A DNA stretch of 64,000 bases from Amoebophrya sp. A120 (Eukaryota; Protista; Dinoflagellata), in the NCBI GenBank assembly GCA_905178155.1, contig CAJINV010000014.1, positions 654,116 through 718,115 on the forward strand, given 5' to 3'. Positions within the stretch are counted from its first letter, which is position 1. Every line of letters starts with the position of its first letter. The translations under genes were made by a program, and so were the position numbers. The notes under the pieces were generated by a model. It ran no database searches. It saw only the letters and a program-made list of their open reading frames with translations, and had not been told where the DNA came from. Shown one piece after another: positions 315-63,800 of the stretch.

Positions 315-3300
315 TTATATACTTTCGCCTCCTCCTGGTGTCAGCGTCCTGCTGCTGACCAACGCTGCGTTGCTCTCCGAGCTGGCTTCCGACCTGGCGC
401 TGGCAAACGTGCGCTTTCGCCACTGCGGATTCGTGGACCGCATAAAGAGGATTTGCAGGCTCTGCGTGGTCTTCCTGATGGACGAAGACGATGTTCCTCC
501 AGTCGTTGTATTGGCTCCAACCCGTCCCGACGAGGACGGCGTACTGGGGCCCCCACACGACCCGCGGGCAGATGCTGTTCCACCTCCACTGCGACCTGGC
601 GTCGTGATGGTTTGCCCACCTCGCCCGGGCGTCGACGCGGCACTAGTACCTCCACCTGTAGTTGTTGCACCACCAGGAGGAGCTCCACCAACAGCAGCAG
701 CAGAGTCGCCGATCGTGCTGGTGCTGCACTCGTGCTCTTTCCAACCGTTCACACAAATCAGAAACCCACTGGTCTGGATCTCGAAAAGGGTGTCAATGGC
801 CTGCATGGGCCGGTCCACGTATGCACTGCAGCGGACCAAGTCGCGGAGAAACCTATGCATTGCAAAAGTATCGGACTTAGTATAAATTGCATGACAAATT
901 TTGGCAAGAAGGAAAGTCACATTTGTAATGCTGTTTTGCCGTAGGAAAAATATTTGTCATGCTTATTTGCGATTCCGATTCGTACGAGTACGATACTTTT
1001 GCACAGGATAAAACCCCTCCAACTGGGATTTCCAAGAACTGATCAGCTTCTTCAAGTGCTCGAACGCCAGCCAGTTGCTCGTCTGAACCTCAAAAGGGTA
1101 GTGTCGGCCGCGGGAATTATGGCCGCCCGAAGCGGCAGTCGCCCCGCCAGAGCCACCACGCCCGCCGCCACGGGACGATGACGAGCCGGTAGCACCACTA
1201 GGCTAGTACTGTGCAAAAGTCTCGTATTCTTAGGAATGTTGGCAAATCAGGTGTGTTTGGTTTTAATCAGGCAACTATTCGACAGCAACAGCATAAACAA
1301 ATTCCCTTCCTTGTCATGCTCAAACCTGTTGTATACGCGATTTGAGATTTTCTACCACTATTCTAGATACGATCACTGCTTTATTTGCAATGCATAGCCA
1401 ACCGGTTGGTGCAAGACCTGCAAGGGCAGCGCTGCGTCCGTGAGCGGTGTCACTTCGACCCGCTGGAAGAGCCTAATGCCGTATCCAATGCAAATTTGTC
1501 TGGGTGTGATGCGCAGTAATTGAATTCAACTTTATGCACGGCGGACACAAAAAGTTGTTTCGTCATGCAGCTCAGGCAAAAATGCCAAACCTTCTTCCAA
1601 ACCGTGACGCTAGGGGGCCTTGCAAGAAGCCAGACCTTCTGGGTCATACTGCAGGAGCAGCATGACATGACAACCATCAGCAGTCTTCCAGACCTGACCC
1701 AGACATATTTGATGCAGTGGATATGCCGATACAGGGAACAAAACGTGGGTGGTTTTGCGTGGAGCCCGCACTGCTACCGCTTCGACCTGGCAGTTGATAG
1801 AAGTACATCGATAGATTTGATTTGCGCTAGCCGTGCAAAAACTTCAAAAAAGCTGCGCAAAAACTACAGCAACAGCAAAGACAAAAAAGCGCACGACAGG
1901 TACTAGCTCAACCAAGACCAACCCCGTCGAAAACAAATTATCTATCAGTACGATATTAGAGGTACATGCATAAGATGATGAACAAGGCACGATACATCAT
2001 TAAAGATGAATTCAATGTTGATCGTAGGGCAGGTTTCATGCACATGGACATGATGCCCTTCATTTTTCAAAACACAGCCTTTTCATCGCTATCGCACGCA
2101 TTGAAGTTGCTGATGTCCTCCTGCTACCTAGGCTCGCGGCGAAGGAACGTTTTGTAGTCACTGGAGGTTGTGCGTGCGACTCCGCCCCTGTTGCTTGGTG
2201 CTTGCCCTGATCGACGACATGATGCACCGACGCGCGGGGATTCAGAAACACTTTCACATAGCCCCTGCTCTTGTCGCCCGGCAGCCGGAGAAGGAGCTCG
2301 CGCATTTTCTGCACGAGGCAGGCCTCGATCACGATCGATTCCGTCTTGCATCGAATGCACACCCTCCCCGTGGGGAGTTCCCGCTGGTAGGAGGAGTTGT
2401 TGCGGGCCGACAACATGATTTTAATTTTTCCTGGAATAAATTCAAATCATCTTCTCGTGTAGTTGTTAGATGACAAGGAGGACGAACTGCAACTGCTCCT
2501 GCTGCGTCCTCTGCGTGCTATGTCAACACTCATGAGGTATACTGGAGTTCTTGGCTTCCTTCTCATTGAGTGGTGTGTACCGCCAACAAGCACATAAACC
2601 AAATAAACTTTCGCTTGCCTGTGTTTGTAGATCCAAATAACTACTCCCAGGCCACCAGGGATCACAAAATATTACCCCTCCAGGGGACTAACACTAAGAC
2701 AAAGACGTAGCAGGAGCGCATTACTTCATCTTGTATTCTCCACCAATTGATATTGACGATCATGAACCAAGAGACGCGGGTTGACTTCAAGAAAAAATCT
2801 ACGTAGCAGCACAGACAGGTGCGGGCGACAAATACATCGCGCAAAGGTGGTTCGTTCTTGATCTTCATTTTCTCTTGCTGGTCTCATATGATGTAGATTT
2901 ATTTGTACTTATTTACAATCTCACAGGTCGTGGACATCGTCATCACAGCACATCGCCATCACATCTTCAACAGCATCTTTTCTTCCGTCCTCCCTTCAAC
3001 ATCCATGTACTGATACCACAGCAGAAACAACAAGCCCAACAGGCTCAGGTGGACGTGGAGTTGACAGCAAAGAAAAAGATAAACAAGAAATGTGGGAGAC
3101 GGTGTAAGTAAGTAGTTTCTTGTTATTCTTCCTGGTCTGAGAAAGTGAGCGGGAGCCAGGCCGGAGGTACAACTAGTACTAGCGGCCCCACCAGATCCTG
3201 TTCTTGATCCTCTACTACATCTTCAAGAAAACGCGTATCATCTTCCACAGGAACAAACATTCATGAAACGTCGGCAATTCGTCCGCCGTCAAAAGCTCAG

Positions 3301-4660
3301 AACAAAAGGCAGCTCCACTAGTCATACTCTTTCCCCACGAGGAAAATAAATCTTCACGTAGCATTTTCCTTTTCGGGGTTCTACTTCTCCCGAGTTTGAT
3401 TTCTTTCAAAGGATTCGTGTTTCTTTGTAGCCAAACCTCAGAAGAAAGGTAAGGGGAGCCAATTATATCCACTTACGTCAGAAAAAGAAGTGTTGGAGAA
3501 GTGCGAAACGGAGATACTAGGTCATCCTCCTCCTCCTGCCCGTAGTATCAGATGATATTAGTGGTGCGAAAATTCAGAATCCTACTACGGCGCACCACGA
3601 TATCCAAAATTATTAGAAACAGAAACATTAATCGTGAGCAAACGTCTTTAATTTTTTAAAAGATTTACAGCAAAACAAATAAAGCTCTGCAAAATATTTT
3701 TGATCTTGACCATCTTGGTGAAGGTCCTGTATTCCGATGCTCTTCCCTCCATCAGAAAAGGCAGAAGGAGCATCCATTTTTGGCAGAGTTCTTGGAATTA
3801 TCTGTAGTTGTAAAATCATGATCACCATCTTGCTCCTTCGAGTTCGACGGAGTTCATCTTAGACGATGAGGCCAGCGGTATAATCAAAACTTATGTTCGA
3901 GCATAACGTATGTAGAACAACTTTTTTTCGTCGTACAACCTGCAGGCACTCTTACCTACTTCAAAGGTCCATTTCCTCAAGTAGTTCCCGGCACAAAAAG
4001 GTGTGGTAGCAACTGTGCCGTGGCAGCCGGCTGGTGATGTCAAAATTTTCCACGCCCGGAACCTTGTAAAGACCCTCCCTACCGATAAAAAAGTTCCCCG
4101 CCAAGGTATGCAAAAATACAAATCGACTTATATTCTACCCGAACATGTACAGAATTCTGCTTGTGCGGCCTCACTTTCTTGACAAGAACCGTTGCTGTTC
4201 TTATGATCTTCTTCATCTTCTTGAAAAAGCACTTACAAAACACAAAAATGCAGAAGTACTGGTGATCGTCTTTGTCATGCAAGGACGGGCTCAGCATAAT
4301 TCGTACGTGTACTATGGGCAACAATCAAATTTGTAAGTGCATACACGGCCTCGGAGTCGTACAGCAGCTGGTCCCGGAGACTGTAGAAATTCAGAAACCG
4401 CCCGGTGATCAGATGCCTCTTGACTTCGTACCATTTCTGCAGCGCGGCCTTTTTCTGAAAATTCGAACTATGGAGTGGTGCAAAAGTAGGTACAATAACC
4501 GAAAGCGAATGGCACAGCAGGACCGTAGAGGGAGAACTTGTACTTGAAGACAAGACCTTCATTGAAATTCTAAAACGAAAAACATATTGACAACGAACTG
4601 GAACGCTGTCCTTTCTCAACCTCGGGCTCCGCGTGAGCCTGAGGTCTTTCGTGGCTCCAT
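315..4660 (-). CDS. Multi-exon uncharacterised protein; possibly the 3' part of the giant gene at 4700-14960
   Basis: Removing the elements at 854 and 1482 gives continuous frames (...SSWKSQLEG/FLRDLVRCSAYVDRP..., ...RFVPCIG/IRLFQRVEV...). Protein-like ORF pieces at 2060-2416, 3215-3472 and 4275-4619; their introns are not resolved. Confidence 0.55.
854..1010. mobile_element. Introner family B (TIR TATNNNNTGCAAAAGTATCG)
   Basis: TIR, TSD AAACC, frame restored. This copy can be drawn as GT...AG. Confidence 0.9.
1204..1396. mobile_element. Degenerate introner family B
   Basis: tgtgcaaaagtctcg...tttgcaatgcata; TSD eroded; interrupts an open frame. Confidence 0.55.
1482..1723. mobile_element. 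Introner family A (TIR TATCAAATGCAAAAATGTCTGGGTCTGGAAG), diverged
   Basis: TSD TGCCG, frame restored. Confidence 0.85.
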
Positions 4661-4699: not shown

Positions 4700-7600
4700 T
4701 TCCGTTGTATGCATCTTGCGGAGTGAACGCGTTTCAATTGCAAATTCATTCGATATGCTACTTTTGCATTTTTTCGTGCATACTGACTTTCGTGCTGCAG
4801 ATCTTGGATCACTTCCTCCTCAATGTCGGCTCCCAGTTCGATCGCCCGCGCAGCCGCGTGTCGAGGGGCGCTTGCTCCCAATCGTCCGCGGTTGGGCTTC
4901 TGCTCCTGATTTTCATCCTGCAACCCAGAAGTAGTTGTCCTCGTCTTCACTGGTGCGCCCTCTTGTAGAGATGCTGCATCATGCTCGTCTACAAGAACTT
5001 GTCGCGCACCAGTACTTCTACCCAGTGAGGATACAGCCGGCGGCGCAGAAGCGGAGGACGATGATCCAGAAGTGGGGGCGGTCGTCTTTCTACTTGCAAC
5101 AGTAGAACTCCTACTCGTGGTACTCCCGCCGCCACGTCGACCTCCCGCCGCGGACGACCCAGCTGCACCAGCAGAAGTACTTGAGGTTTTCTTTGCGCTG
5201 TCCAAATGCAGGAAAAACACGTCCAGCAGGCGCACGTGGGCCCCCATGAAAACCACGTTCTCGATCACACTCGTCAACTTGGGAGGGGGACGAGGACGAC
5301 GACCTTGTTGCGCAGCACCACGAGCAGAGGACGAACTACGGGCACAATCTGGAAGATCTCGTCCGAACAAGTTCTCATCTTCTACCTCGCCTTCTTGTTC
5401 TATGCGGTCGTTGTGCTGCTTCATCAGCATATGGAGTTCCAGCAGCGCCGTCAGCACGACCTTGCAACCGAAAGAGTAGGAGATCAGGGAGAACTTCTTG
5501 CTCCGGGATGATGTTGTAACGAGAGCGAGCGCTGCGTTCTTAGTACTTCTACCGTTGTTGTTGGCACTACGTCCACCATTTATTTCCTCTCCCGCTTCAA
5601 GTAGACCACCACGGTGCCCACCAGGAGAAGGAGATGAATGTGAGTCAGTGTGGTCAAACTCATCTTCGTCGGCTGGTGCACCTTCCAGATTTATTTTCGT
5701 CCGATCCGTTTGACGTTGTCTTTCCGTCTGCCTCGTCGACGCCGATCCTCCCGCAAGAAGATGATCCTCCATTTCGTGATCTGCTTGGGCTTGTGCGACG
5801 GTCATCTGGAAGAGAAACCTCCCGAGCTCGATATGGCGTTCTCAACTGTTACATTCTCAACTGTTACATGGGTTTGTGATGCAAGAATGGCAAAAGTGAA
5901 AGGGGTCAGCTTGCGCGTCTTGCATGACAGATCTAGCAAAGATCTTCGGCCTGTTTGGCTCTTCGCGAATTTGTCATGCGAAGCAGCTTGATCGTGTCGA
6001 TTCTGATTATGATTTTGCATTACAAATCATGTAACAGTTGAGAATGTAACATTTGAGAACGCCATACTCGACCCCGACCTGTTTGAACCGGTGAATCGAG
6101 ATCTGTTCGACGTTATCCAGTGCAAAAGTATCGCACTCGTAGTAAAAATCGCAGCTATGCATTACAAATCTAGTTGGTTAGGTAAATCCGCATTACAAAT
6201 TCAATTTGTAATGCTGAGCCAATTTGCATTGCGAGTTATACTAGTGCGATGCTTTTGCAGTACATAGACGTCGTTCAGCATCTCCTGCACCCGCTGCACC
6301 CCCAGGTACGCCAAATTTGGCGGATTCAGCAAGGAAGTGAGCACCTGCAGGTAGAAAAACCGATTGCTAATCGCGTAGAAGTCTTCGGACCGATACTCGA
6401 GCTCCTGGTGCATGCGGTACATCTGTTGCGTTTCGTACCGGAGAAGCAAAATGCTGTCTGGACAAGAATTATCTCCGTTATGATACTGTTGAACTGTAGT
6501 GGCAGATGAATTCCGGACTGTGTGTTCTCGATCTCGTCTTCCACTTTTTACAAATGCCAACCCCTTCGTAAAGGTGTCGTAGTGTTCGTGTCTCGTTTGG
6601 ATCAGGCCGCCCGGTACGCAAACGAAGAAGTGGCGCTGCGGTCGTTTGCCGCTCATATTAGAGGACATACTAGATGACCACGGCTGCACGATCGTGTTCA
6701 TCTTTCTCGTCGAGATATAACTGCCGCGCTGCTCCTGCTGTCGCTGTGAAGATGATCGCAAGGCATGTTCATCTTTTGATGCGCTCTTCCGCTCTTGAAG
6801 ATGACTATGTTCTTGTGCTGGGTTGGTGTCCTCGTGCTCATGAACTACAACGGTCTTGTCGTCCCCACTAGTGCCGATAGTGACACCGTATCTTTCATCA
6901 TCCTCATCAAGACCCCCACCGATGAGACCACCTCCACCTACGACATAATCGCCCCCAAAACTGCTGCCCTTCGGACAAGAGCTGCGCATCATCTGCACAA
7001 TATCCAAGGCGATTTCCCGCACCTCGCCCCAGCGGATGGTCAGAGACTGGCTCGCCTGGTTGTAATTCATGAGCCCATACAGCACAAACAGCACCACATA
7101 CAGCTCGCCACTGCCGACAAAGTCCAGCAACTTCTCAACGCGCAGCGCTCTGGCCGTGTTGCACAAAACTGTTTTGAACAGAAACCGCACGGGGACCGCG
7201 AAGAGGTAATGAAACAGGTAGCTCTGCAATTTATTCGTCGTTTGCAGCATCAGGTTAGTCCCGGGGGGTAAGGCCTGCGCAACATCGGAAACCGTGCTTG
7301 CAATCTTGTTGGTAGTGGTACTTGCAGCGGCCCCCCCAAGATCAGTCGCAGAGGTAGATGCGAGTTCGTACCAGGCATGGTCTTTGCAAATCACGTTTTC
7401 CAACACCAAATGCAGCATCTGTGCCGTCCCGGCCACGGACGTCGCCAGGGCGAACCCGTATCAAATGTAAAAATGTCTGGGTCTGGAAGAGTGGGACTTG
7501 TAATGCTGTCTGCGGATTCTAAAAGTATCTGTGTTGCGTGAGCAGTAAGAGGAGTCAGTTCTTGGCACGCGGAGAGGGCATTTGTCGTGCGTAATTAGCA

Positions 7601-10600
7601 TCAAGAAGCTCTCAAAAAATCTGTGATGCTAGCACCAGCATCACAGACCTGATGGGTCATGCAAAATGTGCATGACAAGCCCCGACTCTTCAAGACCCAG
7701 ACATATTTGCAGTTCATAACCCGGCGAAGAGACCGATGCCCACGGTGATTGCGTAGTACTTCCACGGCTTCGTGTATGACAGGAAAAAAGTGTTACAGTT
7801 ACACATTGTGTTGCAAGACCGGCAACGCAGACAACCTTTCTCATGCAGGAAATGCTTGGGAGCCTCGTTTCCTTCCTGTTTTCCCGTATGATCTTCGCAT
7901 TACAAGTTTTCTCTGCCACACAGAGAAAATTTGTGATGCAGAAACTCAAACAAATGTGTAACTGTATACACTTTTTTCTCGTCATATCGTGTCCAGCGTC
8001 GCGAGCCGCTCGGGCTTCAACACAGAGAATGCGCTTGAAGATTCCGGGAGCTGAATCAACGAGGTCGGGTCGAAATACAACTTCACCTGGTCGCGGAGAG
8101 TAAGGTAGTGCAAGTTGTCCTGGGCGGCATCTACAACTTCGGGAGGACCTGGCGTTCCTTCGTGTTCCGCGGCGGCCGTGTTGATGTGATGATCCTCCTC
8201 CTCGTCACCGGCAGAGGAACCAGGAGAAGAAGCGCCTCCGAAGAACCTAGCAGTACTGCCAGCCTCGTCATCCTTATTTCGCAGTGCTGCTGGTGGTGGT
8301 TTCGAGCCCAACCGAACCGACTTCGTCTTGAACAGCGTGGACAGGGAAGCGGAGGGGAAATAATTCTCGAAAACTGTCCTGTCAGAAACATCTTCCCTAT
8401 GGCGCTCCTCCACAACATCACCGATTGTCGCCACCAGGTCCCTCAAATCGTCTCCGGTGATAGAATGAAAGTCGGAAAAACTCGTGGGCGGATTTCGATT
8501 TTCAGCGGCAGCGTTAGCATCTCCTCGCAGCTGCGATAATAAACTAAAGAGCAAACTCAACGTCCCCGCCATCCCCTCGAAGTCGACAAGTTTTGTTCCG
8601 GCGACAGAAGTAGAGATGGTGGGACTCGACGACACTTTGATCAATTTCTTGGGTCCACTACGTCGGGAATTGCTCCGGCTTCTTCGGGTTCCGCCAGCGA
8701 GAGCGAGCTGCAAAATCGCGGCGAGAGAGAGGAGCACGAGGGCGGCGGGGGTTGTTGCTTGAAAAGCAGCTTCTCTGTGCTGGTCCTCGACCACTAAGTT
8801 TCTTGAATTCGAAGACACGTCGCTGTCCTTTTCTTCAACACCAACTGTGGGACGAGGATGACCTTGACCAGCATTAGGCTGCTCCTGCAGCTCACCGGAC
8901 GATGTCGCACTCGCTTTTTCAACATCACCGCGGCCTCCTTTATCAGCCACGTTCTTGTACAAGAACACTGTCGTCAAAGTATCCGAATACGCCTCCATGA
9001 GACTTACCAACCTCTGCGCACAACTCGCCGACGTAAAAGGCAACAGGAGCAGCCCGGGATTTGCCTGCAATGCGGCCGGGGTATTGGCGATCTTCCGGAG
9101 CACTGCCAGGCCAGGATCATCGTCGGCGAGGACGTGATCAACATCTTGGAACAATCCCCGACCGGGAGCTGTGCTTCTTGGGAGCAGCTCCAGGGCCATC
9201 TTCCTAGTAGACGAGGACGCTTTGTTCGCATCTGTATTGTCCGTTCGTAAGTGAAGTTCTTGCCCTGCTCGCCGTTCACTATGAACATGGTCCTGCCCTT
9301 GCTCGGATAGAAGTAGTTCCTGTCCCACTTGCTCCGGCTCGTCCAATTCCAAACCCAGGAACAGACTTCTGCACAGCAAACCCAAACTCTTCCTACTTTC
9401 CACTGGCAGATCGGACTCGTGCGCCACGTTCCGCAAAAATTTTTCGACCGCACTCGCAAAAACGAACTTCGCAAAAACGACGCGAAGGTGGTAGGACAGG
9501 AGCGGGGAAGAAATGGTGCGACCTTGGGCTTGCAGGGGCGGAAAGGTACTATTTTTTCTACCGTTCTTGTAGAACAAAGAACCTCCAAGCGATTTTTCCA
9601 CAAGCGCGTCCCGCTTTTTCCGAATCACCTTGACGGCTTCTGGCCCGCCGGTCACCGTGTTATCCCCCTCCCCGCCCGTGCCGGAGCCGAGGACAAATTC
9701 CTCGCCGCAGACCAGACACGCCTGAAAATCTTCGATGCAGGAGAGACACAGAAGAGAGGGGGAGAAGCTGCTGCCTTGCGCGTCCTTTTCCTTACCAGCA
9801 CGACCAGCACACGCAGCCACCACGCCAGGATGAAATATTTCTCCTTCGCAATTCGCACAGCGAAAAGGTGCTTTGTTTCTGCTACCGCTGCGGCCTCTCG
9901 ACGAGGAAGCTGTGGATGTTGCACGATAAAAATACCTTCGTGCGAGTTCCTGCCTGTGTTCATCGCAACACGCGTGCATCGTTAAACTCTCCACATTCAA
10001 CCGGTCCCAGTCCTGCCACGCTGTGAGAAGGTCTTGGGGTATAGGTGTTACAACCGAGTGTGCTAGCGCGGTCGCTTCTTCTAGCGCGGAGGTCCTCTGA
10101 TGCTCCTTATAGAAGACTGCGTTTACTTCATTTCCCATAACTACATCATCCCGCGACCACGCGCGTTCTTCTGCAGACGCCCTGTAGAAGTCCATCTTCA
10201 CGGGAGCTCCTCCTGCTGCACTACTGGAACTAGAAATCAAGCCGCCTCCCGCCCGCAGCCTTTTCCGCCCGTCGCCCTCTTTCTCCCGCGCCTTCAATTC
10301 CCGATGGTAGGAAAACTTCTCCGGGGGCACAAAGGTCTCCGGCCGTACGTGCGTCACGTGCAGCACTGCTTTCCCGACTTTCTTTTGCACGTTGAACGCG
10401 GAATACAGGGGAATCTCCACATTGGGAAGGTCGAAAGCTCGGCTGAGCAGCTTCGATATTTTGTCTTCTACTTGATGTCTTCGGGCCTGGTGGTGCTCGT
10501 CGTGTTCAGCAGCTGCAGTTTTTATGATCTCGTCTGCGGCCGCCGACGATGAGGATGCTGTTGCTGCCGCAGCAGCAGTCTCCATAATTTGGATTTCATC

Positions 10601-13600
10601 TCCGCAATACAGAAGTTGCGACCAGAGACTCTCCAACTCTTCCAGCTGGCGTTCTTGTTCGTCCCGGTGCCCGGTAGTGATCATAGCCCCTGCCTTGTCC
10701 TGTCGTGTTTGACTTTGCTCTACTGGCGCTCTTCGTTCACGTTCTCCTCGTTGTCGCGTCGGAAGGGTCGTGTTCTGCAGCTTTCGTGTTGGCAGTTGCT
10801 GCAAGTGCAACGTCAAAACACAGTCTGCCAAGAACTCATCGACGTCCAAAAAGCCGAAAGCGATCTCCGCGGGCTCTCCGATAATCATTTTGTCGTGGTA
10901 AACGGACACCCTCACCTTGTAACAGGAAGAGTCGCTACTCCTCGTTCCACGAAGAGGACTCAGCAGGTGGTCGTGACCATCGCCGAAAGAACCGCCTCCT
11001 GCTTGTCCTCGGAGAAAAAACGTGGAGCGGCAGTGCTTAAATTGCAACACCAGGTCGCTCTCCTGCGTGAACCACTTGCGGTACAGCAATTTCGCGAAAA
11101 ACCCCTCGTGCGAGCTGCGCGTGACCTGTAGTATCAAATGCAAAAATGTCTGGGTCTGGAAGGATGCGAACTTGTGATGCTGGATTTGGATGCTATAAAA
11201 ATCTGTATTGCATGAACAGCAAAAGCGGTCCAGTTTTTGCCCCGGCGAGAGGGCATTTCTCATGCGGCATAGGCATCAGAAAGCCCTCACAAAATCTGTC
11301 TCTGTGATGCTAGGGCATCCATCACAGACGTCAGGAGTCATCGTCATGCAACATATGCATGACAAACCTGGCAACATTCCAGACCCAGATATTTTTGCAT
11401 TTGATATGTAGTGTAGACTCTTTTTGGCCCTCGTTCAGCTCGGTGATCGCTTTTTTTTTGTCCTTCCCGAACCCGAGCCCCGTAGCGAAAACCTGCTTGA
11501 CTTCGAAGGCAGTGGAGAGCTCGGTAAAAATGTCGTACGCGTTCACGTATCAAATGCAAATATGTCTGGATCTGAAAAAGTGCAACGTTTGTCATGCACG
11601 TTTTGCATGACGCGTGAGGTCTGTGATGCATGTCCTAGCATCCCAGATTCTGTGAGATCTTTACCATGCCGCCCCCGCATGAGAAACTGCCTCTCGGCCT
11701 TCTCAAAAGTGAACAGCTGTATTGCTAATCATGCAACGCAGATTTTCGTATGATTCAGATTTAGCATGACAAGTTGTACTCTTCCAGACCCAGACATATT
11801 TGCAATGCATATCACGGTCGCGCGGTTCAGCAAACTATCCGTGCCGTACGACTGGTTCGCGGAGAGAAACTGGCTATCCTGTGCAAAAGTATCGTTCTCG
11901 TACTAATCGAAGATATGCATGACAAATCCAACTTTCTACCTGAAATAGCATGACAAATTGCATTTTTGTTCTTGAGAAAATTTGTAATGCAATTTATACT
12001 AGTACGATAATTTTGCAGTGCATACTGGTCGAGCCGCAGCAATTCGGTGGAGGCCCGGTGTGTACACAGTGGCGTGGTGAAGGACTGCAGACTCGAGGTG
12101 GGCAGGTGCTGGTTGCTTGCAGCTCCAACTACTACGCCACCAGTTACCGTCCTTGCGCTGGTGGTGCCTCCAGCGGGAGGAGCTCCTGTAGTTGCTGCTC
12201 CGGAACTCATATCCTGTGCAAAAGCATCGCACTCGTAGTAATCGCAGTCATGCATTACAAATCTCCATCCGCATCCCAAGGTAGAACAGCATGACAAATT
12301 GCATTTGTCATGCTAAGCCAATTTGTATTGCAATTCATACTAATACGATACTTTTGCATATGCATAACTCACTAGAGACACGAAGCAGAACGGGCGCAGT
12401 GTGTTTTTCAGCTGCATCTCCGTGGTGTACATCCGTTCAAACTGCTTCTCGGCCGTGTAAACCGCATGGAGTTTATGGAATACAATCATGATATCAGTGG
12501 TCCCCACCTCGGTCGTTCAGGAATTCCAAAGTTGTATTGCACAAAACTAAAAGGAACTACTTACATAGAGAGAATCATATCAACCACTGCTGCACTGCTG
12601 GCAAAACAAGCGCCAGCTGGGCAAGATGAGCCGCACTGCTTGCAGCTTCGACAAGGATGACAAGAGGAAGTTGGCACTTCCACTTCTCGAGAAGGCTTTG
12701 CCTTATTTGTGCGATGGTCATGGTGCTGCTCCTGTATCATGACAAACTCAAACTTCGATCTCTGTGCAGAGGCGGGGCACCAAATTCATCAAAGATTGCA
12801 ATTTGCGTATGGCTGCTCTGCAATGAAGACCGCAGGGAAAAGTCTTTGGAGAAGAGAAGGCGCAGCAGGTGTATTTCTACGAGAGGAACCTCCGGCAGCA
12901 GATGAAGCTGAGCTCGCATTTGTGGGGGGGAAAACCAAATTCCCAAAACCGCGGCCATCCTGTTGTTCGTTTTCTTCATCGTCCTCTTGGATCGGAATTT
13001 CGGAAATACGCTGAGTATTTGAGGTAGATTCGTCGCCCTCGTAGAAGTCGCTTCCCTCTTCGCCATTCACGTCAACATTTGCCGTGTTCGTTCCGCCTTG
13101 TTGTTTCTTCTTTTTACCGCTATAATTTCTTGCGCTCCTACTTCTTCTCCTGTGTTCCTTTTCATCCGCTTCCTCCTGCCAGCTCGCCTCCGCCCGCCGG
13201 TGGCGGACTTCCTTCAGCTCCACGCGCAACTGCCTCACGTCTAGCAACTGGCGTATCCTCCTGCCAACCAGACGCTTCAACGCTTTGATTCGCACAGTTC
13301 TTTTTGTCATTTCCCGGCTGGAAGTCGAAGTTCTACTTGTGCTCGTGCGGCGTACTTCAGAAAAAGCACTTGTTCTTTCATCTGTGCTGCTGAAGAACTC
13401 CCAGGACAGCAACAGTTTCCCTACCTCCAACCCTTCGACCGGGTCAATGATGGGCAACGTGCCGTAGAAATTGTTCAACGACGTTCTCGTAGTTCTTTCC
13501 TCTTGATCTTCTACCCTGTTCATCCCGCCGAAGAACGTGTTCCTCCCGCGGCTCCCGCCGAAAAGCGGGACGATGCAGCTGCCGACTTCCTTTACCTCCG

Positions 13601-26939: not shown

Positions 26940-27033
26940 GTATTTTTTGGGCGATCATGTTCGTTATCTCCGACGGTGGGGAGCAGATTCATACATAATA
27001 ATAGATGATTACCTCAGAAGAAACTTTGAATCT

Positions 27034-46418: not shown

Positions 46419-46448
46419 CTTTTGTCAGTTATATAATACGGTAGGCCT

Positions 46449-48412: not shown

Positions 48413-48543
48413 TTGAGACGACCACCACGGAAGTTATGGTGACTGCACCATACTGCTAATCCACACTGCAATGAAAACATTTAACATCTTGTTGATGAGA
48501 TTAACGTTAAACAACATCTTTGAAAAAAATACGAGGAGTTCAC

Positions 48544-51500: not shown

Positions 51501-53497
51501 GTATGGCTTGCAAAAACAAAAATACCGTAGAGTCGTGACAGCACCAGACCACGTCGAGCAAGAGCGAAGCGGAAAAGAATAGAGGTATATGGCTCCGCTG
51601 CAGTTACACCTCCTAGCCGAAACTACTACAAGCGGTGCCATCGCTTCAGGAGCGCGGCCCTAGGTGTAGCCTGTAGTTGATCTGCAAATCGCGGTCGCGA
51701 TCGTCACCGTGATCTGTGGATACGACCGAGCATTTTGAATTTACTAAACTACGACTGATTTAAGAATGTATCTGCTGCTCCACGTGCTCTACGGTACTTT
51801 TCGTCCAACAGGATAGATTTCGATCGTACTCCGCGCGCTTGATCGCCCGCTCCCGAGTCACGTCGCTCAGTATGGATTGCAAAAATGTCTGGGTCTGGAA
51901 GATTGTCAGGTTTGTCATGCAGGTTTTCCATAACTCATGAGGTCTGGTATGTAGGACATAGCATGACAGATTCTGCGAAGCCTTTCCAATGCCTATCCTG
52001 CGTGAGAAACTGCCTCTCGATTAGGTCAAAAGTGCACAACCTTTGGCAATCATGCAACACAGCTTTTTGCCTGATTCAGATTTAGCATGACAAGTTGCAT
52101 TCTTCCAGACCCAGACATTTTTACATTTGATACTCAGCTCTTTTTTCTTATTCAGATTCGTCGTCGTTGGAGCGGGTTCTAGTTCTTGCTTGTTGGAGGT
52201 TCCACCTTGGAGGTGTTGCGCAGCAGTAGAACCAGCTCCGGCTCCTGCTTTTCCATCGCGGTCCGCTGGAGGTTCTTGGATTTTTATATTTCCACTTCCT
52301 ACGATCACGCCAGCCGCTCCTGCTCCGTCGGACGATGATGTGCCTGCTCCAGGATGAAGAGTATGCTGTGCAAAAGTATCGTACTCGTATTGCGGTCATG
52401 CATTAGCATTACAAATCTTTTTCTTGAGGTAGATCAGCATTACAAATTTTCTCTCTCATGCTGGGGAAATTTGTAATGCATTTATACGAGTACGATATTA
52501 CCTTTGCAATGCATAAGGAGTGCCCATGTGTGGTCCGACCGTTCGCATTTTCGCCGCAATCGCCTCCAGTTCCTTTATCCAAGAAGAAAACGCTGCTAAT
52601 GTAAATCTGTGATGCGCAACATGCAAGATGATTCCGCCTGTCATGCTTGGCATGCGTCGCAGGGTCCATTAAAGGTCTTTTCACGTACTTACTATCTGCG
52701 CATGACAGGTTTTTGCTGTCATGCCAGACAAATTTGCTGTAATGCTGTTCCACCAAAAAAGTTACACCTACAATGTTTTTTTCTTGGATATCCTTCTTCC
52801 TTTCCGCAATAAACAAGTTGATTTGATCGCGTTTTTTGTGCAGCGCATTGACGCGCTCATAGCACCATCTCTGCCGCGCGGCCTGGCGTCGCGGACTGCT
52901 GGTACTACTCCCGGACGCGGTAGAAGAAATGGGGCCGAGGGACTTGCTAGTTATAGAAACAACTGCAGAAGTGCCTGCTTTTGAAGTCGAACCTTGTTCA
53001 CCACCACGTTGGAGAAGATCGACTACATTACTTTGCTTGTTTCCAGTTGGAACAACAGCAGCTCCCCCGGCTACACGTCGACCCTCAACCGCGGCTCTTG
53101 AAGATACTTCTACGCCAGTTCTCGCCGACGGATTAAACTTATTCTCACCTCGGCTCCGGCAGGTACTGGTACTACGTTGTGCACCACGGTTCGTCTGTTT
53201 GTTTGCCAGCACGGATTCTCTGACGAGTTTTTCCGGAGTTTTGCTTCGCCGCGCCGCGAGGGGGCCGACGGTTCCGGGCGATTTTGAAGCGGGTAATTGT
53301 ACAACTCCACCTGGTGGCTTGTAGTTTTTCGTCTTCTGGTGCTGCGAACCAATGGGCGTGGAAGCAGGTAGTTTATTCACCGAGGTCGTCGTTTCCTGGC
53401 CTTGCGTACCAATTACATCGCGAGACGTTGGAGTTGCTCCCGCGGCACCAGACTCGGGACTGCTGCCAGTATTGTTCTTGTTCACCGGGACACCCAT
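48544..53497 (-). CDS. Uncharacterised coiled-coil protein with low-complexity N-terminus
   Basis: In-frame joins across elements: AERKK/ELEAIAAKM, KKEL/SDVTRERAIK, SLESG/LCDGIMVREKLQ, LVMQ/EERALMCQ. Some junctions unresolved; may be more than one gene. Confidence 0.6.
49352..49636. mobile_element. Degenerate introner family A
   Basis: tatcaaat...ctggaag / ttccagaccccgaca...gcata; ends uncertain. Confidence 0.5.
49725..49874. mobile_element. Introner family B
   Basis: TSD TTCCT, frame restored. Confidence 0.9.
50436..50771. mobile_element. Introner family C
   Basis: TSD CAGGC, frame restored. Confidence 0.85.
51215..51447. mobile_element. Introner family A, diverged
   Basis: TIR tatcaactgcaa / ttgcggttgata; partial TSD TCC. 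Confidence 0.75.
51871..52132. mobile_element. Introner family A (reverse complement of the 61968 copy)
   Basis: TSD CTCAG, frame restored. Confidence 0.9.
52362..52515. mobile_element. Introner family B
   Basis: TSD AAGAG/AGGAG, frame restored. Confidence 0.85.
52576..52790. mobile_element. Introner family E
   Basis: TSD TCCTT, frame restored. Confidence 0.88.
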
Positions 53498-53934: not shown

Positions 53935-54040
53935 AGATAACAGACTTAGAACGTCGATCGTGATCGACATGGTGCGTTTCTTCGCACTTCTGTGCTACCA
54001 CAGATAACAGACTTAGAACGTCGATCGTGATCGACATGGT
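53935..54040. repeat. Exact 39-bp direct repeat containing a small hairpin
   Basis: AGATAACAGACTTAGAACGTCGATCGTGATCGACATGGT at 53935-53973 and 54002-54040. Confidence 0.85.
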
Positions 54041-54146
54041 CCGTCCTTGGGTTGAAGCATTAACCCCCCAGGCGGATGCAGCTATCTTCGTGCTTCTGCT
54101 TGTTGCTCTGTCTTGTGCTAATGCGGTTTGTTGTTCTGCGCACTAC

Positions 54147-57100
54147 TTACACTTCGGCGACAAAATCAATGGCGTTTCGATTGTACCACTCTGCGAGCAG
54201 ATCAGCCGGAATCCACTCCTTCGTCTTGTCACGGTTCTCAAATAGTTTGAGATCTTTGTCGGCCTCCGCGAGCGTCATTACGACCAGCTTCAACGGGTCA
54301 GAGACAGAGTCCTCTTGTACAAAAGATTGAGACCACGCCGACTGTTTCCGTTCCTCTGATGAGTCGAAAAGCTGCTGGCTTCCTGCTACAGCTTCCCTTG
54401 CGGTTTTTTCTTGATGCGCCGAAAACGATGACTCCTCGCCCAAACCGGAAAATGGGCAACCTGCGGCGCTGCTGGTGCTGGTTCCGCCACTGCTGGACAT
54501 CGGTGCTTTCTTACTGTTCGCCACCAAGCGAATCGCAGCCCGGACGGCGTTTCGAATCTGGTCCACGTCTTTTTCCTCGACTGCCAAGATGGCGCGAATG
54601 TTCACCCGGTCAGCCCACTTTTCGCATCGCATCATCAGGTGCATCTCCGGGCGCGAAAAGCGGCGCCACCAGCCCCTCCAGGAGTCGAGGGCAAACCGTT
54701 TTCGGAATTGTTTTTGCTGCCAGTGTGCCTGTCCCGTTACGTCCACCACATCCCCCAAGACCAACACTGGTAGGGTGCCCGGCCCCATGTAGGTCCGCAG
54801 CTTCTCGGTGGCGTCCGCTATGCTGTGTAAAAACGTAGGTATGACTCTCCACCCCCAGTGTCGAATTCGATTTGTCATGCGAATTTGCATAATACCCAGA
54901 AAAAAATCTACCGCGGAATGCATCTCCCGCGCGGCTCTTTTCAGCATGGATCTGCGATCGTGGCGAACGTGCAGAGGGAAGTGGGAGGCTAGGTCTTGAT
55001 CTTCCAGCCGCAGATATTTATATTTATTTTCATGCTGGGTATGGGCTGTGAAAGACGTTTTTCCTCATGATATCGGCGCTTTCCTCCCTGGTCAACCACC
55101 AGAATCGACCAGCGTAGGCATGGGGCTTGAGACCCGCGTGTCTGAGAGTGCACAACCCGACCCCCCGACACCCTTCTACCTCATATGTGGTCACGTTGGA
55201 CGCAAATACCGAAGTCGAATAGAAGAAACGGAAGACATTCTCTGCGCCACTTATGTTATTTGAGTACATAAAGTCATCCCTTTATTTCTTGGCGCTCTGC
55301 ATCTTTAATTTTACAGCATGATAAGTTTCGAAACCCCCGACGATGCTTCTAGTGGAGGCAGCAACGCGCTCGAGTTCTTGTCCTTGTTGTGCACTCGGAT
55401 AGCGTTCTTGTTTGCGTACTCTTTCGCCATATCCCACAGACGCACGCTTTCGTCTCCGCTGCATTCATGCATCCGAAAGGACACGGGGGCAGACACTGCA
55501 ACGAACTTCCGCTGGAGCTCAGCGTAATTCGTTTTTTCATCATTGCGGAGGGACGTCGTGGTCGACTGGATGTCGGTCCCCACCGTTTCATTCGCCATCT
55601 GTGCCCGCTCCCCTCCGGTTAACTCGATCCCCTTCCGGGTCAGGAAATTCACGCCAGCCAGCTGCGCGTTCGTGAAGAGAATCGCCGAGACCACATGGTA
55701 AATCGCCACACCGGTGAGCGACCAGGGTGTTGGAAAACCCAGGTCATCGCTTGGAGGTCTCGCCAGCTCCAGTGCGCGTTGGGAAACTGAGGGCGAATGG
55801 CAGAGGAAGAGCTGACCGATGTACGCGTTCAATAAGACAGTGGCTCTACGCACGAAAGGGCCAAGCCATTGCTCAAAGATATGGCTATCGTCCGACCACG
55901 ATCTTCCGCAATGCCGCGTTTTTATTTGGTCGGGCGAAGCTGTGGAGTTGTCGTGGTGGAACCAATATGCCGCGCAAAAGTATCGCACTCGTGCAATTTT
56001 GTGCAGTCAGTCTGGCGTGATAAGTCTGATTATTTCATATTAGGTAACTCGTCAGCACTTGCTGCAAACGCCACCTCTAAACCTCCAGATGCATCTAAGG
56101 AGCCCAAGCCCAACATACATAAAGAACTACAACTCTACTGCAGTGTAAATTTTAGCTTTACTTCTAAAAGTGTAAGTGTCGCGATACTTTTACCGAGCAT
56201 AGCCAAGACTGCAGCGAGGAGTTCTCCATCGCGTAATACCTCTCCTTCTCATACGGCGGATCGTACTTGTATTCATGTCGTGGACGTTCCCAGATCAGGC
56301 CATTGAAGGAAGACCACGAAGCGGGAGCCTTTGCGAGCACATCTTTGGCGAATGGCGTGCGCTTGATCGCTCGCAAGTACTTTCTTGCCACTATCTGCGC
56401 CTCCTGCTCGTCCACGGCGACAAAAAACTGCTCTCCCTGTATGGAAGTGTCTGGTTTGAAATGGGCGACACAGTAAACAATTTGCAATGCACAAAATTAT
56501 GCGGGGCACGGGCACACAGTAGAAAGGGTGCCTTTCTTGAAGAGCACGAGCAGGCAAATCAGGAAGATTCTGCGATAAGCCTGTTTGAGGTTGTGTGATG
56601 ATGTTGCAGATAGAGCTGCTACAAGAGTACGACAAAAAAAGCATTTTTTGCCCAAACAGCAAGCATCAAACAGCAACACTCCTTTTCCTTTTTTTGCACT
56701 TCGCTACTGGCAAATAAATCTTCATTTGTCATCATGCGCCATCAGCTAGAGCTTGCGGGTTCTTCGACTACTGGTCGTGTCGCTACAATATCAAATACTA
56801 TACGCTGCAAACTCTTTCAACCTTGTCGATTTCGAACCCGACACTGCCATACCCTTTCCGATTCTGTTAATCAGAGCATCCCGATCCCGATCGTAGAGGC
56901 CCGCGGAGAGGCACCTCGGTCGCAGGTCAGGCTGGTCGCCGCGAAGAACTGCGAGTGAGGCAGAGCCTGCGCCGTTATGAGAGTGCATAACCAACCCTTC
57001 CCCTCTTTTGAAGGCCATGATCAGGAGCAACACAAGCAACGGCAGATGAAATTTGGGCTCCGTGTAAAAAATCGTCTGCACATCACCAATTGCAGTAGTA

Positions 57101-58555
57101 CTGCAATCGCTGAAGAGCGCGGCACTCCGCGTGAAGTGAGTGTGAGTCCTCTGAAATTGTTCTGTACAATTTAAGACTCACACTCACTTCACGCAGAGGC
57201 AGACAATTCCTCTTCCACCTAACAATAAACAATCAATGGATTTGGAATTTATAATTTTTACACATGCTGCGGAAGCAGGGAAGCTGTCGTTCTTGTGCAC
57301 TCTCATAGCTGGCGCGAAGACCTCCGTCATCGCCATCGTCATCCTGTCGAGAGCCACCCACTCGGTTCGTGGAGAAGACGCTGGCAATCTTGAACGTCTC
57401 GAGGAATTCAGGCCGGCAAAACGCGTCCGATCGGGAGGAAGTTCCCTGCTCATCATGGCGGTCCGCTTCGCGGGTCAAATTTTGACCATTCATCGCACTG
57501 CGTCCATTAGTAGTACTCCCACTCGACATTGTTCCGTCTGTAGCGGCAACGACGTCCGCTGCGTCGCCCGACACCTGCGAGGACGGCCAGGCATAGGCTG
57601 TCGCGTCATTTTGATTTTCCTCGTCCCGCCTTTCGAGCTCGCAGGGGCAATCGAGGCGCCAATTTAGCAGCTGCAGACTGATCTTTTTCGACGATGCCGA
57701 CGGGCCATTTGCACCATTTGCGTATGTATGCGGCCGAGCAAGAAGCTGTGCGTTGGCGCGCCGCAGCCGCTCCGCCAGTGGATTCGCACGAATCACAGCA
57801 TCGCAGATCTCGTCGCTGCACGTCGATGGAGCTTTGATCCGCTTGTTGGGTGTTTGAAGAAAAGCATCGGGCTCCTGATATCCTCCCTTCGTTATAATTT
57901 GCTTGATGTGATGTTCGTCTTCATTTTCTATCTCCACCCAAGAAGCTCCTTTTTGTTGTTGGCGTTGTTCGGTACTACTGCTGGCCCCTTTGTGGTCAAC
58001 GGTAACCACACGCGCGAAGCTTTGTGGAGTAGAACTGAACCCAGCGAAAGGTGGAGGGCCAACGGATGAACGAGGAGTATCGCTGGTATGCAAGAATTCC
58101 ACTGCTGATTCTTCTTGAAGGGCAGAACCGTTCTCGTCGCTGTCTCGTCCTCGTGAATTTGTATTTATCATTTCGCCGTCAACATCATCGTCTCCCTGTC
58201 GGTCATTTTTCCTCGAAGAGGGGCGAGATGGCGCCGCGGAAAAGCGAGTAGTCGTGCTTTTTGCTCGTCCGCCACGACCACCTCCGGGCCCGTCGACTTC
58301 CTGTGGTTGTTCTTCTTCTTGTTTACCCTTATCCAGAAGTCCCACAGAAGTTGAAGTTGATGCTGCGGCTACTTCTCCGGCCGCGAAGCATTTCAACCTC
58401 TCCAGCAGGAGGAGGAGCAGTGGAAGTGATATTAGACCGCCGCGTAGTAGTGCCTGTCGGGAAATGAGACAAACGAAAGCAAAGCTGCGGCAAGAAGATG
58501 AGGCAAAGCTACTTCTCGAGCAGTTTGTCTGTCGTTTGGACGTCGAAGCCTCCAT
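54147..58555 (-). CDS. Large uncharacterised protein with N-terminal signal/anchor
   Basis: Hydrophobic GGLISLPLLLLLL near the start; joins GLRAS/AGSASLAV, SLQSW/FHHDNS and TREES/ADATEKLR across three elements; other junctions unresolved. Confidence 0.6.
54819..55072. mobile_element. Introner family C, diverged
   Basis: TSD TCCGC/TCGGC, frame restored. Confidence 0.8.
55966..56201. mobile_element. Introner family B, expanded
   Basis: TSD ACCAA/GCCAA, frame restored. Confidence 0.8.
56976..57307. mobile_element. Introner family K (TIR TATGAGAGTGCA)
   Basis: 12-bp perfect TIR; removing element + 5 nt keeps frame. Confidence 0.8.
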
Positions 58556-60883: not shown

Positions 60884-63800
60884 TTATTTGATTTCTTGTA
60901 AATAGCCCCACAATTGGTTCAGCCTCTGTTTTGCTTCCTCGTAGTCCGTCAGCTCGTTTCTGCAGATTTCCCGTGCCAGCTGAATCAACTCAAACATCTG
61001 TTTGGCGTCGGCGGATTTGTTTCGGTCCGGGTGGGTGTACCGTGCCAGGGTGCGGTAACGCGTGTTCAGCAGCTGCTCGTCAAATTGCTGGGGCAGACCC
61101 AGCGTCACGATGGCTAGCTTCCGTAGTTTCTTGCACAAAATCAGGGTGGATTCCTCGCGCCAACATTCGTAGGTGTAGGCCGCCACCCCCGAGCCGACGA
61201 AACAGCCCAGGATCGCGCACAGCGCCGGGCTCCACCCCAGACTGGCCCCGAGAATACACGCGGCCGCGCCCATGCCATTGCTGTACCCGCTGAACACTGC
61301 GTCCGCGAGAAACTGCTCCTGCGTAAGGTGCTTCTGGGTGTACATCAAATACCGAAGCGCAATCCTATCCTGTGCAGAAGTATCGCACTTGTATTGCAAT
61401 CATGCAGTTTCTTCTTAAAGGTAAATCAGTACCAGCATTTACAAATTTTATTTCTCATGCTGAGGAGATTTCTAATGCATTCATACGAGTACGATACTTT
61501 TGCAGTTGATAAATCCACCCGGAGCCCAGAATGCCCAGCAGCGCCGGCGTCGGGTTCAGGGCAAGGTAGTTAGCAGCAAACTGCATGGTGGGCTGATATA
61601 AAATTCATTTCGCATGTAGATGAAAGTGGTAGGCGTAGTACTTCTAGCGTGGTCCTTCAGATGTTGTTGGGTCAAGATGCAGAAGGCGATTCAGATTTCA
61701 ACTACTTGGCGAGCCGCAGGAAAAGTATGAGGAAGATTTTTACAAGTATTAACAACGACCGCAAGTCGGAAATGGATTTTCAACTACGAGGAGTACTATC
61801 TCACTCTTCTGAATCAAAGAAACACACCCCGTTTTTCTTGTACTTATGAATGTATAGAGACAGAGATTATTTAGTTCTTTTTCTTACCATCGAGGCACAT
61901 CCTTGCGCGGCATTAATCAACTGTAGGACACTCCAGTAGCTAGCGCCAACACAGGCTCCCTTCCCCGTATCAAATGTAAAAGTGTCTGGGTCTGGAAGAA
62001 TGCAACTTGTCATGCTAAATCTGAAGCATTGAAAAATCTGTGTTGCATGATTACCAAAAGTGGTCCAGTTTTGACCAAGTCGGGAGGGAGTTTCTCATGC
62101 AGGGTAGGCATGAGAGAGATCGCGCAGAATCTGTCATGCTAGGTCCTGCATTCCAGACCTCGTGTGTCATGGAAAAGCTGCATGACAAATCTGACAATCT
62201 TCCAGACCCAGACATTTTTACAATCCATACCCCGCGTCGACAGCCAGCTCCTTGCCGATGTCGGACATTTTGGTGTCTTCCTTGGCCAGCCACAGGGACC
62301 GGACCAAACCCAGCACGGACTGCACCCCTATGGACACAGACATCGACATGGCCAGACTCGTGGGCGCGAGCATGTAATCCTTTCCGGCCACCGCAGAGGA
62401 AGCATTCGCGAAGCTGGGGCCCGCCGCAGGGTGCTGCCGAATCACGTGCAGGCCGCCACGCATCTGAGTTTATTTTTGCTAGTTGTTCGGTATAGTTACT
62501 TGGAACTGCGTATGCCTACTATTAATCAGCTTTAGAAAAAATTTTCCATGGTGGTCTGTCACGCAGATGGATCACAACAACTACAACATCCAACGGGCCC
62601 TGCTCTATTAAATGAACGAATAGAAGCGTAGGAGTAGTACCGGGTCCACTTTGAAGGTGTAGTGTTTTAGCGGCAAGAAATTCTCTCCGATCGCGTTGAT
62701 ACCACCTGCCAGGGACGAGGAGGCCCCTCCTGCGGACGCCGCGCTGGTCGCGCCCACAGAAGTTGCACCAGTGCTTGAGGCCGCAACCGCGTGGGCAACG
62801 GCCTGGGATGAAGCTGCGCCCGCTCCTCCAGTGACACCTCCACTCCCCGCGGCCACCAACGCAGCGTTGACTTGCCCGGCGTTGTTTGCAATGAACAAAT
62901 TGCCCCCGGCGGTGGAGGCAGTGGAGACGTATCCTGTGCAAAAACGTCGGGGGCCCCAAACCGCATGTTAATTGGAGGTCATGCAAATCTGCATGCAGCT
63001 GCCCCAGAAGTCTCTCATCATGATTCCCAATGAGCAGCACTTTCCATATGACGTGTTGGACCAGCCTTCCGAAAAAATCATGCTCTTGCTAGCAGGACCA
63101 CAACATGGCCAATTACAATTTCAATTCGTCGTGATGCGGCTATTTATAGCCAAGCACGACCACAGAGACAGACACATACACACTGCATGTCATCAAAAGC
63201 ATGCGGAGTCGACAATGTGCTTCTCGAACAAGAAGATCTGTCTAACCAGATTTCTGATCTCGCCTCCGGAAAGGGGTGAACGACGTTTTTACATAGAATA
63301 AGATGACGCGCTGGATGAGCCAGGTGTCCGCGACGTTTTTGATGGCGTTGGTGGTACTGGAGCCGGTCGCGCCGAGAACGTAGGCGGGCGTGATCACGTT
63401 GGGCGTGGCCCGGTAGTGCGTTATAACGCGCTCAGGTGTTACAATCTCAAACGTTACAATAGAGTTTGGAAATCTGTGATCCAAAAAGTGCATGACCTAG
63501 CCTTCATCTCCCACAGGTCTGCGCATGACAAGTTCCGGAGTCCCAAACCGCACTAGAATCATCATCTGGCGAGATTTGTATTGCAGAAAGTGGACCAAGT
63601 CTGTGTCTGTCATGCTCATCATGCAACACAAAATCCAGACTCTATTGCCACATTGAAGATTGCAACATCTGAGCAAGCCATATGCGTGATCCGCGTCTCC
63701 TGTTCTATGGGCTGCTTCATCTCGGCCTCCCAACGGTTCGACAGGTTGTTCTGCTCCAGGTTGGGGTGGTGCGACAGGGCGGCCCGGTTGATCCGTGTTC

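Follow-up and report, generated by a model that had tools for sequence, protein, structure and literature searches.

How are transposon-like elements removed when they interrupt one exon after another, and by what rule are their borders set? This question is raised by a 64,000-nucleotide (nt) stretch of the dinoflagellate Amoebophrya sp. A120 (GenBank assembly GCA_905178155.1, contig CAJINV010000014.1, positions 654,116 to 718,115; hereafter the window, with coordinates counted from its first letter). Here, 68 curated elements of 146-553 nt each, with TAT...ATA ends inside a flanking direct repeat (DR), interrupt minus-strand exons and total 16,798 nt, or 26% of the window; the roughly 60 elements and one-fifth of the window proposed in an earlier sequence-only reading were thus real but slightly undercounted. 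The elements are the already known A120 introners of Farhat et al. 2021 (PMC7789003), as that reading had suspected in calling the phenomenon probably not new. Specifically, the window elements share with introners the host, the TAT inverted repeat (IR), the border repeat, the repeated families, and the absence from mRNA, and the passages of that paper devoted to introners describe the same IR (TAT, 7 nt, AAA), a DR of 3-5 nt, non-canonical borders, and removal in RNA-seq. The borders of the published elements had been reported as variable. Our results revealed that one polar rule fits all of the joints: on the sense strand, the intron is N-UAU...AUA-NNNN, cut 1 nt before TAT and 4 nt after ATA. 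Thus, where the same passages give splice sites as variable or unknown relative to the hairpin, we find a register of 1+4 and a repeat length of 5.

The evidence comes first from transcript-like contigs, in which 21 of 21 element joints skip exactly L + 5 nt, L being the element length. These contigs belong to two runs, X1 and X4, assembled in one study; neither carries an RNA label on record, both were treated as RNA from their coverage and joints, and assembled contigs show majority forms and hide minor registers. We take X4 to be mature mRNA because canonical introns are lost, depth is gene-specific, and a poly-T loose end lies at 46852, which is likely the poly(A) site of a minus-strand transcript. 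Across 40001-60000, X4 gave seven element joints and one GT-AG intron (among 15 of 489 joints listed), and across 49150-57450, X4 and X1 agree on all 15 joints, namely 14 of 14 element joints and one GT-AG intron. Two raw-read RNA runs, X9 and X10, aligned 15 and 3 reads, respectively, and were uninformative. The scarless removal claimed in the sequence-only reading therefore holds at the RNA level, and splicing at nearby GT-AG sites instead of element + 5 nt, which would have contradicted it, was looked for: 0 of 21 joints could be slid to GT-AG and 3 of 21 to GA-AG, and at the register described below, GT-AG borders occur in 0 of 66 elements. Retention was seen once, as element 49977-50371 is unspliced in X1 at depth 6.2 beside the spliced form at 21.5-23.5; it is not retained in X4, and its neighbor 50436-50771 is not so covered.

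The counterpart is a DNA-like run, X5, that covers 40001-60000 at a flat depth of ~43 with contiguous contigs across the elements. Its depth is 0 at all seven listed element joints, and no element-free alleles were seen there (one sample). Seven X5 joints that link the ends of different copies were read as cross-mapping of other family members and set aside. Taken together, these observations support removal of the element + 5 nt at the RNA level, the segment being absent from transcripts and present in DNA-like contigs. Separately, X5 shows second alleles across 54600-58500 (substitutions and 3-4 nt indels), partly common to X4, which reflect heterozygosity or a mixed culture.

Where within the duplication the cuts fall can be read wherever the two DR copies differ. 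We use k for how many bases of the upstream DR copy fall within the intron; all 21 joints are compatible with k=1, 19 with k=2, 17 with k=0, and 12 with k=4. Element 49352, with a DR match of 1/5, permits k=1 alone, while 52362 caps k at 1, and 41008, 51502, and 55966 set a floor of at least 1. It seems improbable to us that only the 5-nt total is fixed and that the cuts slide within the repeat, with contigs displaying the majority form. Such sliding would accord with the variable sites described in the introner passages of Farhat et al. (PMC7789003), with contigs being majority paths, and with the fact that 16 of 21 joints narrow the register little by themselves. However, no joint conflicts with k=1, the two runs agree at 14 of 14 joints, and no alternative joint or other letter is listed at these junctions.

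The register also has a direction. Its mirror, k=4, is excluded by nine joints and k=1 by none, and nine out of nine gives p=0.004 if the register were tied to element orientation, because family A lies both ways in genes. Hence, the register follows the gene strand, not element orientation, and therefore points to an RNA step. Further, the offsets of 1 and 4 add up to the 5 bp of the duplication, so that the codons are unaltered by any insertion, whichever way it is oriented. A second assembly (contigs JACKZZ01, loci L001-L150, with 152 matches in the scanned part and no overlap with the window) bears out both premises: the family A DR is exactly 5 bp, with 98 of 141 copies perfect and at most 13 at any other length from 2 to 8, and family A orientation in genes is 51 vs 43 of 129 copies at a calibrated strand threshold. 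This assembly, the source of every metagenome match listed, has copies from the same families with identities as high as 96%, some of them with internal insertions (L022:6184-6998 and L033:715-1210).

In ciliates, internal eliminated sequences are short, transposon-derived inserts in coding DNA that are removed precisely, from DNA. The sequence-only reading had kept such DNA-level excision as an option, and the elements do resemble DNA transposons, with an internal motif whose phasing is of a DNA type (see below); moreover, only one DNA-like run was used, possibly the source of the assembly, its contigs drop rare forms, and 15 of 489 joints were listed. Nevertheless, unlike the ciliate inserts, the elements are kept in X5, with contiguous contigs across them and no depth at the seven joints, an RNA-like run partly retains one element, and in nine of nine joints the polarity of the register goes with the gene strand, a pattern not expected from a two-fold symmetric excision. 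DNA excision is thus unlikely, and we regard it as extremely improbable that the elements leave the DNA in the stage or the copies that are transcribed.

Coding frames and proteins agree with the joints. Once the element + 5 nt is removed, minus-strand stop-free frames of 2029 aa (8 elements), 1449 aa (12), 965 aa (5), and 794 aa (5) emerge, and 64 of 68 elements fall inside frames of at least 120 aa, which make up 70.5% of the remaining DNA (p=1.4e-6). The proposal that removing the element and one copy of its target-site duplication (TSD) restores the frame is upheld to that extent, although the frame test by itself does not separate +5 from +2 or +8. More specific is an annotated Amoebophrya sp. 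A120 protein, P0001, with an exon that is 100% identical; it maps across 30034-37350 and crosses 10 elements, each of which can be taken out as +5 at k=1. In conserved parts, gap-free alignment across the joints is also seen for two other Amoebophrya-like proteins; two protein searches returned no further annotated A120 gene models. Of the motifs that the sequence-only reading found rebuilt, an HAD-like DxDxT motif and Cys repeats are visible, yet Pfam named none of the four proteins or pieces tested.

The elements themselves stand far above chance. A strict screen, requiring a perfect 5-bp DR, TAT...ATA, and at least 13 of 20 IR matches, gave 29 matches vs 0.03 expected (30 block shuffles), and the loosest relaxed screen gave 84 pairs vs 6-13 in shuffles; the curated list joins the strict and relaxed screens with the RNA joints and P0001. 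Position counts, hairpin, and internal-motif tallies below use a 66-element list, and the family tally uses a 63-element list. Ends and duplications are as the sequence-only reading described for most elements, with exceptions: the sense 5' end is TAT in 66 and TAC in 2, the sense 3' end is ATA in 64, ATG in 3, and AGA in 1, and the DR matches at 5/5 in 38, 4/5 in 20, 3/5 in 3, and at most 2/5 in 7. The inverted repeat opens with TAT, and seven less conserved bases separate this triplet from a run of three or more A. Six multi-copy families account for 35 of 63 elements, with copies up to 90% alike and both orientations present; although 9 of 11 family A copies in the window lie one way, this bias was rejected, as it vanished in the larger outside set. 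No strong target-site consensus was found in the window elements or the second-assembly copies.

What, then, does the cutter read? Bases +1, -2, and -1 are unconstrained, without a trace of a G+1 or AG preference, and a weak +1/-1 association (p=0.04) was ascribed to exon dinucleotide content. In contrast, T is found at +2 in 68 of 68 elements, and the supported canonical donors of this genome begin with GTA in four of four cases. The DR is dispensable, as 49352, 51502, and 32990 are removed despite decayed repeats. In a screen outside the window that left one end free, both triplets are kept in 309 of 331 elements, with no matches in 99 kb of shuffled sequence. Substitutions within the triplets are polar. 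Across 323 oriented elements (255 from outside plus the 68 here, two one-base-shift cases being dropped), variants at triplet positions 1, 2, and 3 number 1, 1, and 6 in the donor arm and 8, 6, and 1 in the acceptor arm; positions 1-2 thus give 2 donor vs 14 acceptor variants (p=0.004) and position 3 gives 6 vs 1 (Fisher p=0.002). Strands were called from a codon model that in calibration was right for 58, wrong for 3, and silent for 5 of 66 elements. The guarded bases are thus U+2 and A+3 in the donor and A-7 in the acceptor, although the numbers are small. No donor-arm preference for G at +5 was found (15 vs 10).

With moderate confidence, we favor a relaxed, U1-independent U2-type spliceosome as the cutter. 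The GT/GC-AG borders of U2-type introns are absent from the elements, while U+2 and a donor like the genome's canonical one are present. The donor would be recognized as N-UAU, a form of the GUA(Y) donor native to this genome in which +1 is no longer constrained. The acceptor would be set by distance, without recognition of AG, and the branch from which it is measured would probably be the A located 7 nt upstream of the cut. Pairing of the inverted repeat would help to bring the ends together but need not persist. In the yeast P complex (10.1101/212811), the partner of U+2 is U6, that of G+1 is G-1, and that of the branch A is A-2. A joint loss of G+1 and AG with U+2 retained would be coherent, because the contact of U+2 with U6 is separate from the contacts that G+1 and AG make with one another and with the branch A; if the U6 contact were kept and the end-to-end check replaced by a distance rule, N-UAU...A(-7) would be accepted. 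Giardia, with [G|C]TATGT donors and a fused branch/acceptor motif in the account cited here (PMC10711314), offers a precedent by analogy. Further, the relevant sections of PMC7789003 report that U1 was not detected in A120 and A25, that most spliceosome parts are kept in A120, and, in Table S4, that the nine commonest non-canonical classes all start with NT in A120 and TT in A25; U1 is reported as present in a GT-AG Amoebophrya strain (PMC12005148, in the part cited).

A dedicated, non-spliceosomal cut-and-ligate system, convergent with that of Euglena, is a less probable but serious possibility. It would grip a paired UAU/AUA at the stem base, cut 1 nt and 4 nt outside the triplets, ligate the exons, and likely release a full-length circle. 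The Euglena code, as given in the sections of PMC12501133 on nonconventional introns, is 5'-N3 CDG...CH'G N5-6, with a paired triplet, fixed spacers, and free terminal bases, and these introns leave as circles according to the passage cited from PMC11282704; options for their splicing are listed in PMC12621601, in the portion on this topic. In A120, the unconstrained +1, -1, and -2, the removal of both orientations, the undetected U1 (PMC7789003, same sections), and the 49 of 66 elements with at least 6 of 12 predicted terminal pairs all accord with such a machine. What counts against it is the pairing itself. Sense-strand G-U pairs number 45 vs 55 A-C, which is no G-U excess, the sense and antisense strands fold alike, a sense-strand hairpin signal was sought in the elements and none was found, and end transitions are wobble-compatible in 7 cases vs incompatible in 9. 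Moreover, 49352, 43641, and 51502 are precisely spliced with 0-1.2 predicted terminal pairs, so that a stable closing stem seems not to be needed, as far as folding predictions go. The sequence-only reading's idea that paired ends define the removal is thus only partly borne out: the cut is measured from the terminal triplets, but no sense-strand G-U excess accompanies it. The triplet constraint is also polar, matching the canonical GTA donor. In its strongest form, about which we are comparably doubtful, A120 would possess a second, non-spliceosomal splicing machine, evolved separately from that of Euglena, whose code N|UAU...AUA-NNNN| would be tuned to the 5-bp footprint of a transposase. 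If so, every exonic insertion would be silent, and tens of thousands of introns, the "singleton" non-canonical ones included, would be its aged products.

Several points weigh against the relaxed spliceosome and the rule on which it is built. The joints were all taken from contigs that a single study assembled, their status as RNA being a guess; the tested genes all lie on the minus strand; and one-base resolution of the register depends on a combination of only 5 of the 21 joints. The polar-variant test involves 23 variant sites, with strands called from the codon model, and in young copies of family A, the triplet varies at least as much as the inner IR positions, which were themselves used to select those copies. 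Element borders lack any G+1 or AG preference, a clear U2-pairing motif is absent from the 3' end of the window elements, and no significant difference between the two arms was found at positions 4-16. A distance of only 7 nt between branch and cut is short, and the Table S4 classes may have been shaped by the aligner. Neither a lariat nor a branch point nor small nuclear RNA pairing was observed, and the geometry closely parallels a Euglena code thought to be non-spliceosomal. Either outcome would be notable: a spliceosome without need of G+1, AG, or U1, or a second origin of Euglena-like splicing.

How the elements spread can be approached from their content. [quoted passage not shown] The motif GCAT[G/T/C]ACA occurs 138 times inside elements (8.65/kb; 50 of 66 elements) vs 6 times outside them (0.12/kb), on both strands, and a spacing of 31-33 bp separates 23 of 91 pairs of same-direction copies (null mean 2.4; five families). 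In elements from outside the window, the same spacing is found in 151 of 445 pairs, a count dominated by related copies. The strand symmetry and three-turn spacing suggest that these are putative transposase DNA-binding sites. The elements would thus be non-autonomous inverted-repeat transposons with 5-bp target duplications, spread by a trans-acting, integrase-like (Ginger-like) transposase that would bind the terminal repeats and the internal motif. The supplement of PMC12130899 includes, among the rows consulted, an A120 family (38) with a Ginger annotation, integrase-like homology, a 5-bp TSD, and TA/TA termini. Neither a transposase nor an autonomous copy was recognized in the window or in 562 kb of loci, where open reading frames were inspected by eye (5 of 10 long candidates). 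Widely spaced TIR pairs spanning 0.5-6.2 kb were examined as candidates and rejected; they held no recognizable transposase, and the 6.2-kb pair is a chance pairing of the inner repeats of two copies.

These results both extend and contrast with earlier descriptions. [quoted passage not shown] The A120 families of Gozashti et al. 2025 are, in the portions of PMC12130899 that treat them, mostly TIR DNA transposons like the elements here. However, automated TSD calls there range over 2-6 bp among 38 of 58 A120 rows, and mechanisms are split into "co-opt both", "co-opt 5', carry 3'", the reverse, and "direct insertion", whereas our elements point to one rule, with both splice sites inside the duplication. 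Nonconventional introns of Euglena (PMC12501133, same sections) share a MITE-like origin, a paired triplet at a fixed distance, free terminal bases, and slidable borders that were resolved via non-slidable cases. They differ in having spacers of 3 and 5-6 nt with CDG/CH'G, a signature that the elements lack, as opposed to 1 and 4 nt with UAU/AUA, in belonging to an unrelated lineage, and in that pairing was shown to matter there, while wobble tests do not support it here. Non-canonical introns of Fritillaria borealis are likewise derived from transposons with TIRs and TSDs, and their handling is attributed to an adapted U2 spliceosome in the sections cited (PMC11282704, PMC13326754), but they have a preference for AG-AC/AG-AT ends and a conserved U1, in contrast to free terminal bases and an undetected U1. 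A literature search covering the text of openly accessible papers found no publication with a fixed 1+4 register or a phased motif. A single polar rule turns thousands of seemingly random borders into one code, indicates where a branch or circle junction should be sought, and lets A120 gene models be corrected.

Table 1. Coordinates in the window of the 68 curated elements and two canonical control introns, with strand and supporting evidence (register, permitted values of k).
Feature	Position	Strand	Evidence
Element, family A	854..1010	-	DR 5/5, TIR, frame
Element, family B-like	1482..1723	-	DR 5/5, weak TIR
Element, singleton (weak)	4107..4343	-	DR 4/5, frame
Element	5832..6066	-	DR 5/5, 2029-aa frame
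Element, family A	6114..6266	-	DR 5/5, 2029-aa frame
Element, family B	7459..7718	-	DR 5/5, 2029-aa frame
Element	7775..7986	-	DR 5/5, 2029-aa frame
Element, family B	11132..11406	-	DR 5/5, 2029-aa frame
Element, family B, opposite orientation	11548..11811	-	DR 5/5, 2029-aa frame
Element, family A	11875..12024	-	DR 4/5, 2029-aa frame
Element, family A	12210..12366	-	DR 5/5, 2029-aa frame
Element	16375..16589	-	DR 5/5, frame
Old element, decayed DR	18912..19189	-	DR 2/5; end fixed by frame
Element, family B	19363..19614	-	DR 5/5, 1449-aa frame
Element	20073..20296	-	DR 5/5, 1449-aa frame
Element	20923..21170	-	DR 4/5, 1449-aa frame
Element	21418..21743	-	DR 5/5, 1449-aa frame
Element	21825..22104	-	DR 5/5, 1449-aa frame
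Element	22241..22469	-	DR 4/5, 1449-aa frame
Element, family A	22571..22727	-	DR 5/5, 1449-aa frame
Element, family B	23424..23685	-	DR 5/5, 1449-aa frame
Element	23892..24163	-	DR 4/5, 1449-aa frame
Element, family B, sense 3' end ATG	24476..24737	-	DR 5/5, 1449-aa frame
Element	24800..25127	-	DR 5/5, 1449-aa frame
Element	27136..27426	-	DR 5/5, frame
Element, sense 3' end ATG	30382..30666	-	Removed as +5 in P0001
Element	30758..30917	-	P0001; ortholog identical across joint
Element, family A	31480..31629	-	P0001
Old element, sense 5' end TAC	32696..32854	-	DR 2/5; P0001, register 0-2
Old element	32990..33280	-	DR 1/5; found from P0001; register 0-1
Element, family A, opposite orientation	33905..34055	-	P0001
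Element	34115..34395	-	P0001
Element	34452..34656	-	P0001, register 0-3
Element, family B	35335..35589	-	P0001
Long element, 553 nt	35623..36175	-	P0001 skips 558 nt
Element, sense 5' end TAC	39673..39977	-	DR 5/5, TIR
Element, family A	40034..40182	-	RNA joint, skip 154
Element	40547..40766	-	RNA joint, register 0-3
Element	41008..41264	-	RNA joint, register 1-5
Element, family B	41379..41644	-	RNA joint, register 0-3
Element, family B	41752..42031	-	RNA joint
Element	42082..42341	-	RNA joint
Element, sense 3' end ATG	42407..42592	-	DR 4/5, frame
Element	43076..43244	-	DR 5/5, frame
Element	43290..43567	-	DR 4/5, frame
Element	43641..43926	-	RNA joint, register 0-2
Old element	44022..44293	-	DR 2/5; TIR, frame
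Old element	44410..44574	-	DR 1/5; TIR, frame
Element	45644..45794	-	DR 5/5, frame
Element	45853..46071	-	DR 5/5; X4 contig piece starts at 46072
Old element, pins register alone	49352..49636	-	DR 1/5; RNA joint 49347>49638, unambiguous
Element, family A	49725..49874	-	RNA joint
Element, partly retained in X1	49977..50371	-	RNA joint + unspliced contig
Element	50436..50771	-	RNA joint
Element	51215..51447	-	RNA joint, register 0-3
Old element, found from RNA	51502..51815	-	DR 2/5; RNA joint, register 1-2
Element, family B	51871..52132	-	RNA joint
Element, family A	52362..52515	-	RNA joint, register 0-1
Element	52576..52790	-	RNA joint
Element	54819..55072	-	RNA joint, register 0-2
Element, sense 3' end AGA	55141..55401	-	RNA joint, register 0-4
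Element	55966..56201	-	RNA joint, register 1-5
Element	56440..56851	-	RNA joint, register 0-4
Element	56976..57307	-	RNA joint, register 0-2
Element, family A	61366..61511	-	DR 5/5, frame
Element, family B	61968..62229	-	DR 5/5, TIR
Element	62930..63300	-	DR 4/5, frame
Element	63422..63682	-	DR 5/5, frame
Canonical GT-AG intron (control; donor GTAC)	40259..40434	-	RNA joint
Canonical GT-AG intron (control; donor GTAT)	50908..51179	-	RNA joint

Not counted among the 68 are candidates at 53643-53910, 58921-59053, and 60683-60882 and several low-score screen hits. A family A-like element at 1198-1397 has kept its sense 5' TAT and lost its 3' ATA; removal up to either the measured position or a YAG close by restores the reading frame, and the element may be a hybrid intron, which would favor the spliceosome. 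Between adjacent elements, the shortest exon is 40 nt and 13 of 39 short ones measure 49-63 nt, hinting at a minimum exon size or at insertion spacing. Rfam gave no match in the window, and one pattern scan of viral contigs found nothing. Elsewhere, a ~40-bp direct repeat at 26140 and 26899 surrounds three related palindromic units (26592-26853); this 26140-26940 unit lies upstream of the Cys-rich gene and is not a TAT...ATA element. Short intergenic tandem duplications occur at 39229-39375 (three copies) and 53933-54040 (two copies), and the upstream regions of two neighboring genes, 46554-46734 and 48172-48365, are 78% alike over ~197 nt.

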